Source: an uncultured Kiloniellaceae bacterium (lineage in GTDB: Bacteria > Actinomycetota > Acidimicrobiia > Spongiisociales > UBA11373). Taken from it: a DNA stretch of 64,000 bases. Location: positions 85-64,084 of the forward strand of contig CAXMOL010000067.1 in NCBI GenBank assembly GCA_964194935.1. Reading direction: 5' to 3'. The position numbers and the translations under genes were made by a program. The notes beneath the pieces were generated by a model that was not told the DNA's origin, did not search any database, and saw only the letters and a list, made by a program, of their open reading frames with translations. Below, one piece after another: positions 33,323-58,570 of this stretch. Every line of letters starts with the position of its first letter. The stretch's first letter is position 1.

Positions 33323-33394
33323 TCGGGGGTGGTGTAATTGGCAACACAGCGGGTTCTGGTCCCGTCGTTGAGGGTTCGAGTCCTTCCCCCCGAG
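33323..33394 (+). tRNA. tRNA-Gln (anticodon CTG)
   Basis: Hand-folded cloverleaf: acceptor TCGGGGG/CCCCCGA, anticodon stem GCGGG/CCCGT with loop TTCTGGT, T-arm GAGGG-TTCGAGT-CCTTC. 72 nt, CCA not encoded. Confidence 0.85.
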
Positions 33395-33419
33395 CGAAGG
33401 TGGTATGAATACCGCCCTC

Positions 33420-33492
33420 GGCCCCGTCGTCTAGCGGCCTAGGACGCTGGCCTCTCAAGCCAGTAACGCCGGTTCAAATCCGGTCGGGGCTA
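33420..33492 (+). tRNA. tRNA-Glu (anticodon CTC)
   Basis: Hand-folded: acceptor GGCCCCG/CGGGGCT, anticodon stem CTGGC/GCCAG with loop CTCTCAA, T-loop TTCAAAT. 73 nt, CCA not encoded. Confidence 0.85.
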
Positions 33493-33594
33493 CGTTGTCG
33501 AGAAGTCGCTCGTCATGATTCGCCGGGTTGCTGTTCACCACCGGGCACATGTTGAGAGCGGGATCGACCCGGTAGAGTCACCGAACTCTGCGCT

Positions 33595-52847: not shown

Positions 52848-54047
52848 CTACTTCCTGACGAACTGAGCCACGGTCTCGATGTGGAAGGTCTGGGGGAACA
52901 GATCCACCGGCGTGGCTAGTTCGAGTTGGTACCCGGCGTCGTCCAAGTGGCGCGCATCCCTCGCCAGAGACGCGGGATCACAAGACACGTAGGCGATCGA
53001 GCGGGGTTTTCCCGCGGTTACTGCCGCCACTCCGGCGGCGCGTAGTCCCTCGCGAGGAGGGTCTACAACGGCGGTATCCCAGCGTTCGCCGATGGCTGCA
53101 TCCTCGACCGCACCCTTTACCAACCGGTGGTCGATGTCGGCTTGCGCCAGGTTGTGGCGCAGATCGAAGACAGCGAGCCCGTTCGACTCCACGGCGATCA
53201 CCGCGGATGCTCTTCTTCCAACCGTTACGGAGAAGAGCCCTCCGCCCGCATAGGCATCGAGCAGCGTCTCGCCCGACTGCGGCTCTAGGGCCGCGGCGAC
53301 GAGAGCCACGAGAGTCTCTGCTCCTGCGATGTTGCTCTGGAAGAAGGCGTCGCCGGTGATCCGCAGCTCGGCGCCGGCGACCGTCTCGCTGATATCTCCG
53401 CTGCCGATCGCGGCATGGACCCCGCTGCGATCCCGTCGGGAGACTCCGCAACCCCAGGCCTCGGCACCATCAGGGACGGGGCCTCTGATGACTGCTAGTA
53501 CCGAGCCGGTCGTCGTCGACATACGCAGAGTGACGGCACGTGCTTCGCCCAGATCGGTGAGGCTGTCGTACACACGAGCCAAAACGGGATCGAGCAGCAG
53601 ACACTCGGAGATGGGCACGAGGGTGTGGCTTCGACGCTCCGTAAGCGCCGGGGCTCCATCGAGCACCGAGAAGTCCATTCGGTTCCGGTAGCCATATTCG
53701 GGCCCAGGTGCGACGGCGGGCGCTATCGGCGGGTCGTCGAGTCCACCGAGATGGGCGAGTTGGCTGGCCACGATCGACTGCTTCCATTCCAGTTGAGTGG
53801 GGTAATCGGCAAACTGCCATTGACAGCCGCCGCACCGGGCAAAATGGGGGCACGGGGGAGCGACCCGAAGAGGCGAAGGCTGAAGCACTTCCTGCAGCGT
53901 CACCCGGGCCCATGCTCCCTTGTCCTGCACCACATCGCCGCGCACGAGTTCTCCCGGCATCGCCCCATCGACGAAGTGGGCTTTGCCGTCGATGCGTCCG
54001 ATGGCGGCGCCACCGTGGGCCATGTCGGAGGGAGTGAATTCGATCAT
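52848..54047 (-). CDS. 23S rRNA/tRNA (uracil-5-)-methyltransferase, RumA/TrmA family
   Basis: N-terminal TRAM-like region, Fe-S cysteines (CPHFARCGGCQWQ), SAM motif LDAYAGGGLF and the catalytic YVSCDP. Confidence 0.8.
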   Translation of the reverse strand: MIEFTPSDMAHGGAAIGRIDGKAHFVDGAMPGELVRGDVVQDKGAWARVTLQEVLQPSPLRVAPPCPHFARCGGCQWQFADYPTQLEWKQSIVASQLAHLGGLDDPPIAPAVAPGPEYGYRNRMDFSVLDGAPALTERRSHTLVPISECLLLDPVLARVYDSLTDLGEARAVTLRMSTTTGSVLAVIRGPVPDGAEAWGCGVSRRDRSGVHAAIGSGDISETVAGAELRITGDAFFQSNIAGAETLVALVAAALEPQSGETLLDAYAGGGLFSVTVGRRASAVIAVESNGLAVFDLRHNLAQADIDHRLVKGAVEDAAIGERWDTAVVDPPREGLRAAGVAAVTAGKPRSIAYVSCDPASLARDARHLDDAGYQLELATPVDLFPQTFHIETVAQFVRK

Positions 54048-54249
54048 CAGACCAGCGTATGCGGCCCACCCATTTCTGTCGCATCGGCGATCAGCGGTTT
54101 CGTATCTGTACACCATGTCGCACGGGCATTGCACGAACGGGCCGTGTGGTGGTTCGAATCATTGACGGGCGACCCAATGCGGTACCTGCCGGGACGAACA
54201 GAGATGGGTGACAGGGTTAGCCGATCACATATGCCAACCCGGGGCCCGG

Positions 54250-55938
54250 CTATTGGTGTTCTTCAATCACCTCGAGAAAAGCCTTCCCATACCTCTCCAG
54301 CTTTACCGGTCCCACACCCGGCACCGCCAGCAGTCCCGCCGCGGTGGTCGGGCGGAGTTCTGTCATCGCCAGCAGCGTGGCGTCGCTGAACACGACGTAT
54401 GCGGGTACCGAACGTTCGTCGGCGATGCCGCGACGAAGCGCCTTAAGAGTTTCGAACAGTGGCGTGTCCCGCAGATCGTCACCCGAGTCGGATGCTGATT
54501 GACCGCTCCGCCGCCCCGGACTCCCAACCTGGCTGACTGTTCCGGCAAGGATGTCTTCGCCGGTGCATATGTGGCACGATTCGCCGCAGTCGTCGATTTT
54601 CTCGCCGAAATATGCGGCCACGGTGCGGTGTCGACACGCTGAGCGATCGGCCCAATCAAACATCACTCTCGTTTGATGACGATGCCGAGCCTCGGTCTCT
54701 TCGCGGGCCGTCATCCGCTCCATGCTGATCACGTCGGCCCAGGAGTAGAACAACACGCAGTCGCTTGTGACCCCGTCCCGGCCGGCGCGACCGATCTCCT
54801 GGTAGTAGCCCTCTACAGACTTGGGCATGTCGCGATGGATGACGTATCGGACGTTTGACTTGTCGATCCCCATCCCAAAGGCCACGGTGGCGCAGATCAC
54901 GTCTACGTCGTCACGGATGAAGGCGTCCTGCACCGCAGTGCGTTCTTCTGCCTGCATACCCGCGTGGTACGCCATCGCCCTGATTCCCAGGTCGCGTAGG
55001 TACTTCGCAGTCGATTCGGCTGATGCCCGTGACAGCGTGTAGACGATTCCGCTCTCACCTTGTCGCGCCAGGCAAAGGCGTCCGATCGACTCCCGCACCT
55101 GAATCCGACGCCCGTTGTGCTCGCCCTTCTTGAGGACGTGAATCTTGAGGTTGGGCCGGAAGAACGAACCCCGGAACCGAACTGCGTCCGATAGACCCAG
55201 TTGGGCTTCGATGTCATCGGTCACTTCCGCTGTAGCGGTGGCCGTGAGCGCCAGCACCGGTACCCCGAAGCGAGCCTTCAGGCCACGAAGATTGCGGTAC
55301 GCGGGACGAAAGTCGTGGCCCCATTGGCTGATGCAGTGCGCTTCGTCGACGGCGATCAAGCGAAGGTCAACGCCTTCGAGCGCCGACCCGACGCTGGCCT
55401 CCAGCCCTTCGGGCGCGGCGTAAACGAGTTCGTACCCACCCTGTCGCATCCGGGTGATCCGCTCATTGCGTTCTGTGGGGTCCAGACTCGAATTGAGAAA
55501 CGTTGCTCGCATTCCGATCTCGCTCAGGCCGTCCACCTGATCTTTCATAAGCGCGATGAGCGGTGACACGACGAGCGTCGTACCTCCCAGAATCTTGGCT
55601 GTCAGTTGGTAGGTGAGCGATTTGCCAGCACCGGTGGGCATGATTCCTACGCAGTCCTGACCCGAGACGATCGCATCGATGATCTCGCGTTGCCCCGGCC
55701 GGAACGATGGGAACCCGAATACTCCTTGGAGAACTCCATCGACTGCTTCGAGCCGGGCGGCGACTATCTCGACGGCGAGCTCACGCAGTGCCGCCACGTC
55801 GGAGCCGACAAACCGTTCTGGTTCGCGGCGCCATGCGCGGCGCAGACCGTCGAGCATGCCACCGGCCAGGGCTGTATCGCCGGCGGCGATAAGGGACCGA
55901 AGCTGCTCGATCCCACTCGACACGGCGATCTCGGGCAT
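54250..55938 (-). CDS. recQ: ATP-dependent DNA helicase RecQ
   Basis: [23 protein letters not shown], Zn-binding cysteines (CRH...CGESCHIC) and a C-terminal HRDC domain. Confidence 0.9.
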
Positions 55939-56047
55939 GCCGGGACGGTAGTGGGGCAGTCCGACAGTATTCGGGCATCGTCAAGGGTGTGTGCCTGGAG
56001 ACCACTACCGAAGGCACCCGGCGGGGTGATCAGGCAGGACGCCGACC

Positions 56048-56515
56048 TCAGACGTAGGAGAGGGTCGTCTCGATTTCTATCTGTGGCGAGATGCTCCTCG
56101 CCACCGGACACCACTCGGCGTGACGCGAGTGAACTCGCTCGACCGTTTCCTTCTGATCCTCTTCTACTCCCGAGAGGCGATAGGCCACCGAGATCTTGCG
56201 GACGATGAGCACTTTGCCGTCGAGATGGACTTCACCGACCGTCTCCGAGACGAGTGGCCCGTCCGTTGCATTGATACCGCGCGCCTCCAGCGCGCCCCGA
56301 AGGGTCCCGGTCAGTCACCCGGCCGCCGCCGCGATCAAATAGTCGATCGTGGTCGTGGTCGGGGGATAGGCGTCTTCATCGATCCCGTAGTGCTCGGCGA
56401 TCTCGGCGTGGACTCCGAATGTGATCGGACCCTCGTGGCCCGGTAGGTAAGCCCGACGCATCGGACCGCCATACGGTTCGACTCTCACATGGGACAAGTA
56501 GACAGGCTCGCTCAT
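56048..56515 (-). CDS. OsmC/Ohr-family peroxiredoxin-like protein interrupted by an in-frame TGA at the catalytic Cys position (candidate selenocysteine, or pseudogene)
   Basis: The N-terminal 66 codons end ...TTIDYLIAAAAG-TGA. The same frame continues LTGTLRGALEARG...HAEWCPVARS... for 88 more codons to the TGA at 56048. Two-Cys spacing (position 67 and Cys136) matches the OsmC/Ohr layout. Confidence 0.6.
56279..56295 (-). promoter_or_regulatory. hairpin GCGCGC-UGGAG-GCGCGC, 19 nt downstream of the in-frame UGA (SECIS-like candidate)
   Basis: Read directly from the minus strand. 6-bp G/C stem with a 5-nt apical loop containing GG. The loop begins 25 nt after the UGA. Confidence 0.4.
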
Positions 56516-56601
56516 GGCACCTCCTACCGCCGCAGGCTATCGAGGGCTCGGGAGCAATGTAGAGACGCGATACTGGCCGTAGCATCACGACTAGGAGCCC
56601 C

Positions 56602-58149
56602 ATGTTCGAGCCCTATCGCCCCGAGCCGTATTCGGACTTCGCCGTCCCCGCCAACAAGGCCGCCTACGAATTGGCCCTTGCGGGGGTCTCCGAGCGCTTT
56701 GGCGCCTCCTACCCGCTGACCATCAATGGCGAGACGGTCGAGACTGGCAACTCCATCGAGAGCCTCAATCCATCGAAGCCGGATGAGGTGATCGGAGTAT
56801 CGGCTTCGGCCGGAATCGAGGAGGCAGAAAAGGCGCTGGAGGCGGCGTGGGGAGCGTTCGGGGGTTGGTCGGCACAAACGGCTGAGTTCCGTGCCCGGAT
56901 CGGGATGCGTCTCGCAGCCATCATGCGATCCCAGAAGTACGAGCTCGCTGCAATCCAAACGTTCGAAGCGGGCAAGAACTGGACAGAGGCCGAAGCCGAC
57001 GTTGCCGAAGCGATCGACTTCGTCGATTACTACGCCCGTCAGGCGATCCGTCTCGCTCAACCTGTCGAGGTGACGTACTGGCCGGGCGAGGAGAACGAGT
57101 CGCTTCTTGTCCCGATCGGTGCGGGTGTGGCGATCCCCCCATGGAATTTCCCACTGGCGATCCTCGTCGGTATGGCGATCGGACCCGTGCTTGCCGGAAA
57201 CACAGTGGTTCTGAAGCCGGCCTCCAACACTCCAGTGATCGGAGCGCGCTGGATGGAAATGGTTGCAGAAGCCGGGATGCCTGCCGGAGTCATCAACTAT
57301 CTACCCGGACCGGGCTCTGAAATAGGCGACTACCTGGTGGATCATCCCCGAACCCGATTTGTGAACTTCACCGGCTCCAAGGAGGTGGGGCTACGCATCG
57401 CCGAGCGTTCCGCCGTGGTCCATGACGGACAGAAGTGGATGAAGAGGGCGTTCATGGAGATGGGCGGCAAGGACGCGTTGATCATCGACGAGACCGCCGA
57501 TCTGGATAGCGCGGTGGCAGACGCCGTCGGAAGCGCCTTCGGGTTCCAGGGCCAAAAATGCTCGGCCATGTCGCGGCTGATCCTCGTGGATGATGTCTAC
57601 GACAGGGTTCTCGACGGTGTGGTCGCGGGAGCTGCGGCGTTAAAGGTGGGACCCGCGGTCGAGAACCATCCGGTGGGGCCGGTCATTTCGGCGGCGCAGC
57701 ATCGGTCGATCATGGATGAAATCGCCAAGGGCCGCGAAGAAGCCGACCTGGTGGTCGGTGGAGAGGCCATCGATGGCGGGTATTACATCCAGCCGACGGT
57801 CTTCGCCGGCGTAGCTCGTGATGCTCGGTTGGCCCAGCACGAGATATTCGGACCGGTGCTGTCGGTCATAAAAGCGACGGACTTCGACGATGCCCTCGAA
57901 ATTGCCAATGGAACTGAATTTGGCCTCACCGGTGGCGTGTACTCGACGGATCGCAGCCGTATCGAGCGGGCCCGGCGTGAGTTCCACGTTGGCAATCTCT
58001 ACATCAATCGCAAGATCACCGGCGCTCTTGTCGGTATTCAGCCCTTTGGTGGATTCAATATGTCGGGCTCCAACGCAAAAGCCGGTGGGCCCGACTATCT
58101 GCGCTTGTTCATGGAGATGAAGACGGTTGCGGAGCGGCTGCCGAGCTGA
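56602..58149 (+). CDS. pruA: L-glutamate gamma-semialdehyde (1-pyrroline-5-carboxylate) dehydrogenase
   Basis: Aldehyde dehydrogenase with FMEMGGKDA and GFQGQKCSA (catalytic Cys). The N-terminus and 515-aa length are typical of the RocA/PruA type. Confidence 0.8.
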   Translation: MFEPYRPEPYSDFAVPANKAAYELALAGVSERFGASYPLTINGETVETGNSIESLNPSKPDEVIGVSASAGIEEAEKALEAAWGAFGGWSAQTAEFRARIGMRLAAIMRSQKYELAAIQTFEAGKNWTEAEADVAEAIDFVDYYARQAIRLAQPVEVTYWPGEENESLLVPIGAGVAIPPWNFPLAILVGMAIGPVLAGNTVVLKPASNTPVIGARWMEMVAEAGMPAGVINYLPGPGSEIGDYLVDHPRTRFVNFTGSKEVGLRIAERSAVVHDGQKWMKRAFMEMGGKDALIIDETADLDSAVADAVGSAFGFQGQKCSAMSRLILVDDVYDRVLDGVVAGAAALKVGPAVENHPVGPVISAAQHRSIMDEIAKGREEADLVVGGEAIDGGYYIQPTVFAGVARDARLAQHEIFGPVLSVIKATDFDDALEIANGTEFGLTGGVYSTDRSRIERARREFHVGNLYINRKITGALVGIQPFGGFNMSGSNAKAGGPDYLRLFMEMKTVAERLPS

Positions 58150-58324: not shown

Positions 58325-58570
58325 ATGAATCTTTACGTGGGGAACCTTCCCTTCAGCACGAACTCCGGCGACCTGGAGCAGTTGTTTGGCGAGCATGGCT
58401 CGGTGACCTCGGCACAGGTGATCATGGATCGAGAGACCGGCCGTTCCCGCGGCTTCGGGTTCGTAGAAATGGGCAGCGACGACGAGGGTCGCGCCGCCAT
58501 TCAGGCGCTTGATGGCACCGACAACGGTGGCCGCAACCTGAAGGTCAACGAGGCCAAGCCCCGCAACTAG
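58325..58570 (+). CDS. RRM-type RNA-binding protein
   Basis: 81 aa. RNP2 LYVGNL and RNP1 RGFGFVEM. Confidence 0.9.
   Translation: MNLYVGNLPFSTNSGDLEQLFGEHGSVTSAQVIMDRETGRSRGFGFVEMGSDDEGRAAIQALDGTDNGGRNLKVNEAKPRN

Follow-up and report, generated by a model that had tools for sequence, protein, structure and literature searches.

Does the TGA that ends a short open reading frame on the minus strand of the DNA analyzed here stop a small protein, or does it stand for an amino acid within a larger one? The analyzed stretch (here referred to as the window) is 64,000 nucleotides long. The listed ORF comprises 66 codons and ends with ...AAAG-TGA at 56317..56315. Past this TGA the same frame stays open for another 88 codons up to the TGA at 56050..56048, giving a product of 155 residues. 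The original prediction had described this arrangement, including a WCPV motif 69 residues after the first TGA, and the sequence contains it exactly at these positions. The features of the gene and its surroundings are as follows.

56048..56515, minus strand: candidate OsmC-like selenoprotein CDS, 155 codons plus TGA stop, with putative selenocysteine (Sec, U) at codon 67; one-frame translation with a single internal TGA
56520..56525, minus strand: Shine-Dalgarno-like AGGAGG, read directly from the sequence
56515, minus strand: ATG start codon, with the AGGAGG 4 nt upstream
56315..56317, minus strand: in-frame TGA, putative selenocysteine U67, in the motif AAAG-U-LTGT; from the column comparison with relatives
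56312..56314, minus strand: codon +1, CTG (Leu68), directly after the putative Sec-UGA and giving a UGA-C context
56279..56295, minus strand: candidate bacterial SECIS (bSECIS) core hairpin GCGCGCU-GGA-GGCGCGC, within codons 74-79 (G-A-L-E-A-R); from the MFE fold
56108..56110, minus strand: TGT codon of Cys136 in the WCPVARS motif, presumed resolving Cys, 69 residues after the TGA
56048..56050, minus strand: terminal TGA (codon 156), ordinary stop of the same gene
56602..58149: L-glutamate gamma-semialdehyde dehydrogenase gene, divergent neighbour
54250..55938: recQ, neighbour
52848..54134: rlmD, neighbour
58325..58570: gene of an RRM RNA-binding protein, neighbour

The neighbouring genes have housekeeping roles and say nothing about the function of this one. 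Scans for sigma-70 promoters and intrinsic terminators around the gene found nothing.

In public records the locus appears as a 66-aa 'hypothetical protein', sometimes accompanied by a separate OsmC fragment. In the related loci L002 and L003, for example, PGAP calls an 88-aa 'OsmC family protein' that abuts the 66-aa ORF. The best NCBIfam equivalog score for the protein was 22 bits against a cutoff of 166 and thus no match. PGAP splits the gene because NCBIfam holds no model that covers this subfamily.

The in-frame TGA among related loci

The column of codon 67 was compared between the window and 102 related loci (103 sequences). Scans of GTDB species representatives and metagenomes had added 96 of these loci. 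Two alignments were used, a diverse one without a conserved seed (A1) and a tighter one (A2), the latter for the locus scans.

TGA was present at this column in 100 of the 103 sequences, namely in the window and 99 loci (L001-L018 and L022-L102), and three sequences had TGC, coding for Cys. Further TGA codons were found in L105-L108, which are near-identical strain variants of the window. Protein identity to the window ranged from 35 to 87% across L001-L102. The Sec forms originated from MAGs of Acidimicrobiia and other Actinomycetota, from contigs of marine, sediment and soil metagenomes and from one Bryobacterales chromosome. The TGC loci (L019-L021) belong to the cultured actinomycetes Spongiactinospora, Actinomadura and Streptomyces, and two more proteins with Cys at the column (P0010 and P0012) came from a protein search. 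The original prediction had suggested asking of the orthologs whether Cys and TGA forms coexist at this position, and they do. The motif that follows is U-L-T-G-T or U-M-T-G-T in the window and its relatives.

The protein search yielded 15 relatives in total: two were the Cys proteins, seven were full-length proteins with W at the TGA column and six were C-terminal fragments. The fragments were 85-88 aa in size and started just past the TGA, where PGAP calls them next to the abutting upstream 66-aa ORF. The W-containing proteins (P0001-P0004, P0006, P0008 and P0009) include several JGI or ENA calls. Four of the seven (P0001-P0004) were checked at the DNA level; in each the W was a TGA, mistranslated by the gene caller on a short contig.

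The exact N-terminal ORF of the window was found on at least 23 independent metagenome contigs. Four of them were read (L105-L108, 91-97% nucleotide identity) and all four carried the TGA, while their differences were almost only synonymous. Since the TGA recurs on independent contigs, in four of four read, a sequencing error is excluded, which answers the doubt about the base call raised with the original prediction. TAA, TAG or a second lesion was found in none of the sequences compared.

Protein family and selection on the two halves of the gene

The product matched the Pfam family OsmC (PF02566) at residues 55-150, scoring 45 bits (E = 1.5e-11) where the gathering threshold is 27.5. An AlphaFold2 model reached a pLDDT of 84.3 and a pTM of 0.78. 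A Foldseek search of the PDB gave 55 matches with E <= 0.001; the best 50 of these 55 were all Ohr, OsmC or OsmC-like proteins, with no branch clearly preferred. TM values stayed at about 0.5, since the model is a monomer and the matched structures are domain-swapped dimers.

At the sequence level the match to characterised OsmC and Ohr proteins was weak, with E about 0.01 and 12-21% identity in structural alignments. The family profile aligned weakly (E 0.0099) to the OsmC of T. thermophilus (1UKK). Here, U67 fell on the Cys of AHAGCFSMAL and C136 of WCPVARS on the Cys of GCPVSRAL, so that the TGA column corresponds to the first catalytic Cys of 1UKK, as had been predicted for the family. In the alignment to 2OPL the U column was paired with the Cys of SGCLT. 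Other PDB profile matches were Ta0195 (2ONF, E 0.0009) and YhfA (1ML8, E 0.14). In OsmC of E. coli and in Ohr the first Cys is the peroxidatic and the second one the resolving residue. Judged from this textbook assignment and the weak 1UKK alignment, U67 presumably occupies the peroxidatic position, and by analogy with OsmC and Ohr the protein may have hydroperoxide reductase activity.

In comparison with close relatives omega was 0.03-0.07 upstream of the TGA and 0.12-0.20 downstream of it. The corresponding dS was about 0.6-3.6 overall and 0.6-1.2 for the downstream 88 codons. C136 and P137 were invariant in alignment A1, and alignment A2 contained invariant residues on both sides of the UGA. 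As judged from these sequence comparisons both halves of the gene are under purifying selection, including the downstream 88 codons for which the original prediction had left this to be checked.

The hairpin downstream of the TGA

The original prediction had also pointed to a hairpin with the sequence GCGCGC-UGGAG-GCGCGC at 56295..56279, starting 19 nt after the UGA, and both the sequence and the MFE fold agree with it. The fold consists of a 7-bp stem (six G-C pairs and one U.G pair) and a 3-nt GGA loop 26 nt past the UGA. The stem is a perfect GCGCGC palindrome, and the loop comprises 5 nt if the U.G pair is open. Published bSECIS rules (PMC13188914, Fig. 2) allow a loop of 3-9 nt with G in the first two loop positions, a stem of 4-16 bp, a spacing of 16-37 nt from the UGA and an MFE <= -7.5 kcal/mol. 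The hairpin lies within all of these limits: its stem has 7 bp, its loop reads GGA, its spacing is 26 nt and its energy -11.2 kcal/mol.

Taken alone this is weak evidence, because the window contains 1680 UGA trinucleotides, of which 7.9% pass the same rules and 1.8% have a hairpin at least as stable. The folding of the 71-nt context was no better than that of dinucleotide shuffles (z = 0.25), a test that does not discriminate in a sequence of 62% GC. The signal from the single sequence is only moderately above chance, suggestive and not decisive. No SECIS or tRNA-Sec model was matched in Rfam, either over the whole window at gathering thresholds or in a permissive scan of 55900-56700; this result is uninformative since Rfam covers bacterial SECIS elements poorly.

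The comparison of relatives, with the TGA column and the hairpin codons described below, lifts the signal far above chance. Third-position entropy was determined column by column over 90 distinct Sec-form segments, with the following values.

Flanking four-fold sites, same amino acids and sequences: 1.2-1.9 bits
Hairpin codon +7 (GGC): 0.44 bits
Hairpin codon +8 (GCG): 0.26 bits
Hairpin codon +9 (CTG): 0.30 bits
Hairpin codon +11 (GCG): 0.18 bits

The hairpin codons that did vary kept the pairing. The GAR codon had 45 A and 42 G opposite U, preserving U-A or U.G pairs, and the CGY codon had 62 C and 26 T opposite G, preserving G-C or G.U pairs. Over 84 distinct sequences 98.6% of 588 cells were paired, and in slid registers this value fell to 16-71%. 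All one-sided changes in the stem among the 84 Sec forms were of the G-C/G.U or U-A/U.G type. Double-sided compensatory substitutions were looked for in the same 84 forms and none was found, because the stem is nearly invariant. This near-invariance across about 100 homologs in turn reflects a double constraint by the RNA structure and by the G-A-L-E-A-R peptide. RNAalifold settled on another, shorter register of the GCGCGC repeat.

A similar freezing was observed directly after the UGA. Codon +1 was CTG in 85 of the 87 Sec forms with Leu at this position (third-position entropy 0.18 bits), compared with 1.24-1.64 bits in other Leu CTN columns.

Variant hairpins were present in the outliers. 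The divergent marine U-M-T-G-T subgroup (L077, L094 and L098) carried a register-shifted hairpin in the same place, in which the synonymous Ala variants GCG, GCU and GCC each pair. In the Bryobacterales homolog (L022), whose stem of 8 bp is unrelated, the loop is GGC and the distance to the UGA 20 nt.

Two Cys-form sequences that keep the L-E-A-R-G peptide served as controls. The first one (L109), which retains GALEAR, had drifted at codons +1, +7, +11 and +12, had CTC at codon +1 and had lost two of the seven pairs. This drift fits the expectation of a constraint tied to UGA decoding. The second one (L111) calls for caution since it kept a 6-bp hairpin with a GGA loop through a compensatory exchange of C-G to G-C; this hairpin may be a fossil SECIS.

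The freezing of synonymous sites and the variant hairpins in the outliers thus indicate that the hairpin is under selection at the RNA level, in addition to lying within the published bSECIS limits. The support for the structure comes from these two lines, since double compensation is absent and the hairpin overlaps a conserved peptide.

Decoding of the TGA and comparison with known selenoproteins

Based on our analysis a single gene at 56515..56048 (minus strand) very probably encodes a 155-residue selenoprotein of the OsmC/Ohr superfamily, with Sec in place of the first, presumably peroxidatic Cys and with the UGA decoded via SelB and the hairpin. The Sec-containing OsmC-like protein proposed in the original prediction thereby gains support from the conserved TGA (100 of 103 sequences), from purifying selection and from the frozen hairpin codons. 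We infer the dependence on SelB and tRNA-Sec, the actual incorporation of selenium and the peroxidase chemistry. According to this model the UGA at codon 67 would be decoded by Sec-tRNA(Sec), brought in by SelB once it has bound the stem-loop (GCGCGCU-GGA-GGCGCGC) that lies 26 nt further on. Codon 156 is a UGA without such a hairpin and would lead to normal termination. The product would be a hydroperoxide reductase of the thiol(selenol)-dependent type. If it works as OsmC and Ohr do, attack of U67 on the peroxide would yield a selenenic acid, which Cys136 of the WCPV motif would resolve to a selenenylsulfide that a cellular reductant could then reduce.

The original prediction had named as its alternative a one-nucleotide pseudogene, with TGC or TGT changed to TGA. 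On this view, which may be extended to an error of sequencing, an ordinary OsmC gene is truncated and its downstream 88 codons are decaying. That gene callers end at the TGA, leaving the public 66-aa 'hypothetical protein' and at times an OsmC fragment, would suit such a lesion. However, the same TGA recurs in 100 of 103 loci at 35-87% protein identity and in all four contigs read among the at least 23 independent ones that carry the N-terminal ORF. Furthermore, no sequence has a second lesion, downstream omega stays at 0.12-0.20 with dS near or above 1, and C136 and P137 do not vary. The conservation of the TGA, the lesion-free sequences and the low omega rule out a pseudogene or a base-call error, to which we assign a negligible probability. 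The same public records, with the 88-aa PGAP call abutting the 66-aa ORF in L002 and L003, could be taken at face value: one small gene for 66 aa, and a second one for an OsmC fragment of 88 aa that starts at the CTG after the TGA. Against this, the Pfam match (55-150) and the predicted fold cross the junction, with helix 54-65 and the catalytic residue at the break. The Cys-form homologs are single 155-aa proteins, the frame and the abutment are kept in all loci, and no Shine-Dalgarno sequence precedes the CTG. We therefore consider two genes very improbable.

If the TGA is read through, it could in principle be so throughout the genome, with TGA reassigned as a Trp or Gly codon (code 4 or 25), and the W in seven database proteins (P0001-P0004, P0006, P0008 and P0009) at first sight speaks for this. 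However, the W is TGA in the DNA of P0001-P0004, and under table 11 these loci give no translation that corresponds to the query. Among 24 long high-GC3 ORFs in the window 13 stop at TGA, as does the present gene itself (56050..56048), and the 64 kb contain no other credible in-frame TGA. Acidimicrobiia and other Actinomycetota use the standard code. Reassignment is therefore scarcely credible: because TGA is an ordinary stop in the window and in the same gene, the recoding is site-specific and the code is unchanged. Less remote, yet still improbable, is a programmed readthrough independent of SelB and of selenium, in which a near-cognate tRNA (Trp, Cys or Arg) would read the UGA with the help of the hairpin and the UGA-C context. 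This would fit the freezing of codon +1 as CTG, since UGA-C is a weak termination context in E. coli, and the failure to find genes of the Sec machinery within the window and the related flanks. On the other hand, the position is that of the catalytic Cys of the family, and Cys is the sole sense alternative seen there, which is the signature of a Sec/Cys exchange; Trp or Arg would inactivate the enzyme. Moreover, the hairpin has features of the SelB type (two G opening a small loop, correct spacing), the family has already been catalogued as selenoprotein and the class is known to carry selABCD. Decoding as Sec is thus the reading we prefer.

At three further places in the window (44051+, 21821- and 28197-) an in-frame TGA junction was considered as an additional recoding site and rejected as an off-frame artefact; these junctions are rich in Arg, Ser and Pro, with high GC3 on both sides.

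The genes for Sec decoding were searched in the window and in its relatives. ARAGORN found no tRNA-Sec in the window and 16 loci. A tblastn search of the window and all loci with SelA, SelB and SelD of E. coli gave only generic matches of the BipA-type GTPase. Altogether, selA, selB, selD and tRNA-Sec were found neither within the 64-kb window nor within about 0.6 Mb of related flanks. A second selenoprotein of the same population was looked for in the window and the strain variants and none was found; a NiFe-hydrogenase/Hdr-like cluster in L105 and L108 was rejected as a candidate because it has Cys (DPCFGCATH) and not Sec. All 84 complete genomes of Actinomarinales are reported to contain selA, selB, selC and selD (preprint, bioRxiv 10.64898/2026.04.03.716425). 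This order belongs to the same class, Acidimicrobiia, as the present organism but represents a different lineage of low GC, compared with 62% GC in the window. We infer that the organism decodes Sec from the signature seen among relatives, from the listing of OsmC-like selenoproteins in the literature and from the Actinomarinales preprint. For this uncultured bacterium with 62% GC, whose closest similarity is to MAGs of Acidimicrobiia, a selenocysteine-decoding trait is thereby implied.

OsmC-like selenoproteins and the bSECIS are already established and no new kind of biology is involved here. The present gene is a further, misannotated OsmC-like selenoprotein, of a kind known since 2005. Modestly new are the near-total predominance of Sec in the subfamily, the very clean and doubly constrained SECIS, which is fused to G-A-L-E-A-R, the freezing of codon +1 as CTG and the absence of a curated NCBIfam model. 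The annotation can be corrected: the 'hypothetical protein' and the uncalled or fragmentary ORF form one 155-residue selenoenzyme. The approximately 100 homologs are an unusually clean natural data set in which a bacterial SECIS is visible as frozen synonymous sites in a conserved peptide. They should be useful for training selenoprotein predictors and for a curated HMM, so that pipelines no longer split the family.

Compared with OsmC (E. coli, T. thermophilus) and Ohr (Xylella, Pseudomonas, Chromobacterium) the protein has the same predicted fold. As in the two-Cys members both catalytic positions are kept: U67 takes the first one, which lies on a helix, and C136 the second, which belongs to a C-P motif. 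It differs by Sec in place of the first Cys, by an identity of only 12-21% and by a subfamily-specific N-terminus of about 55 residues (VYxSxVxVE...PITFGVHxEIAEHYG). With the canonical bSECIS elements (fdhF and fdnG of E. coli; bSECISearch consensus) the hairpin shares its form as a stem-loop inside the CDS, a small loop with G-G, the 26-nt spacing and a stability below -7.5 kcal/mol. It has no sequence resemblance to the E. coli elements and consists of a GCGCGC palindrome stem with a 3-nt loop.

The original prediction was correct in stating that OsmC-like proteins are among the selenoproteins of marine metagenomes. Zhang, Fomenko and Gladyshev described them in 2005 as a new selenoprotein family with three sequences from the Sargasso Sea, assigned to COG1765, with the motif UxxT and a predicted SECIS (PMC1088965). 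The GOS survey of 2008 counted five Sec forms against 161 Cys homologs (PMC2398784). The family is still listed in reviews of 2022 and 2026 as PF02566/COG1765 with the motif UxxT, and PMC13188914 lists OsmC-like proteins among selenoproteins as well.

The published proteins and the present gene have in common the PF02566 superfamily, an in-frame UGA at the first conserved Cys, a nearby downstream bSECIS whose small apical loop contains G, the origin from marine or environmental metagenomes and the existence of Cys homologs. The comparison of the present subfamily with the exemplars AACY01145085, MBR72571.1 and MCS5647933.1 was one of descriptions. The published motif is UxxT, whereas the present U-L-T-G-T places Gly at +3 between two Thr (+2 and +4) and thus deviates from it. 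The published assignment is COG1765/YhfA, whereas the present profile is not clearly nearer to YhfA than to OsmC or Ta0195. Cys forms far outnumber Sec forms in the published marine surveys, whereas almost all detected members of the present subfamily are Sec forms. We would tentatively suggest, as a possibility that we rate below even, that these sequences represent a subfamily distinct from the COG1765/UxxT proteins of 2005-2008. It would be characterized by U-[LM]-T-G-T, the N-terminal segment of about 55 residues, an occurrence mainly in Acidimicrobiia and other Actinomycetota, an almost obligate use of Sec (about 97% of detected members), a SECIS fused to G-A-L-E-A-R and a frozen UGA-CUG, and it would lack an NCBIfam model and hence be systematically split in GenBank.

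Codon following the Sec-UGA

The codon directly after the Sec-UGA (codon +1) was compared at the same column in the window and the related loci L001-L102:

56312..56314 of the window, (-) strand: codon +1

CTG was found at this position in 85 of the 87 Sec forms, placing the UGA in a UGA-C context. The entropy of its third position was 0.18 bits, versus 1.2-1.6 bits at other Leu CTN columns. Codon +1 lies outside the hairpin, yet is nearly invariant. The Cys form of locus L109 carried CTC here. The conservation of CTG may be linked to RF2 competition or to SelB decoding.

Sec and Cys forms in related loci

Two homologs are described here:

L022 10001..10435: Bryobacterales homolog, chromosome OZ252029.1
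L111 676..1143: Cys-form homolog P0010, on a contig of 70% GC

The Acidobacteriota homolog in L022, with an identity of 35%, has TGA at the catalytic column too. Located 20 nt 3' of this UGA is an 8-bp hairpin of unrelated sequence, CUGUCAGG-GGC-CCUGGCAG. Since L022 combines the TGA with a hairpin of its own, the Sec form is present outside Actinomycetota.

The Cys form in L111 retained a 6-bp hairpin with a GGA loop at the SECIS position, kept by a compensatory exchange of C-G to G-C (codon +8 from GCG to GGG, codon +11 from GCG to GCC). This hairpin may be a fossil SECIS left by a recent Sec-to-Cys conversion.

In L109 (10713..14700) genes for a phage-type integrase and for a primase-helicase (D5_N/DUF5906) directly follow the Cys-form OsmC-like gene, and this adjacency suggests that a mobile element was inserted beside it.

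Gene neighbourhood and tRNAs

33323..33493 of the window, (+) strand: tRNA-Gln(CTG) and tRNA-Glu(CTC) pair
L105 10724..19774 and L108 6112..15164: cluster of ~9 kb in strain variants (97% nucleotide identity over the OsmC gene)

A tRNA-Sec was not found in the 64-kb window, where the listed pair were the sole tRNAs. In L105 and L108, as some strains of the same population, the ~9-kb cluster separates the OsmC gene from recQ; it was not present in the window, L106 or L107. It encodes the small and large subunits of a NiFe hydrogenase, an MvhD/FlpD-like protein, HdrA-like and CCG-domain proteins as well as HycI, HypA and HypC. The large subunit ends in DPCFGCATH in both variants, with Cys and no Sec at this C-terminus.

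Tryptophan in public protein calls

Trp was written for the in-frame TGA in the database proteins P0001-P0004, P0006, P0008 and P0009 (JGI and ENA calls on short contigs); the DNA loci behind P0001-P0004 are L001 and L004-L006. Apparently an alternative genetic code was applied in gene calling to contigs of insufficient length to judge, which leaves public protein databases with false 'W' residues at a catalytic position.
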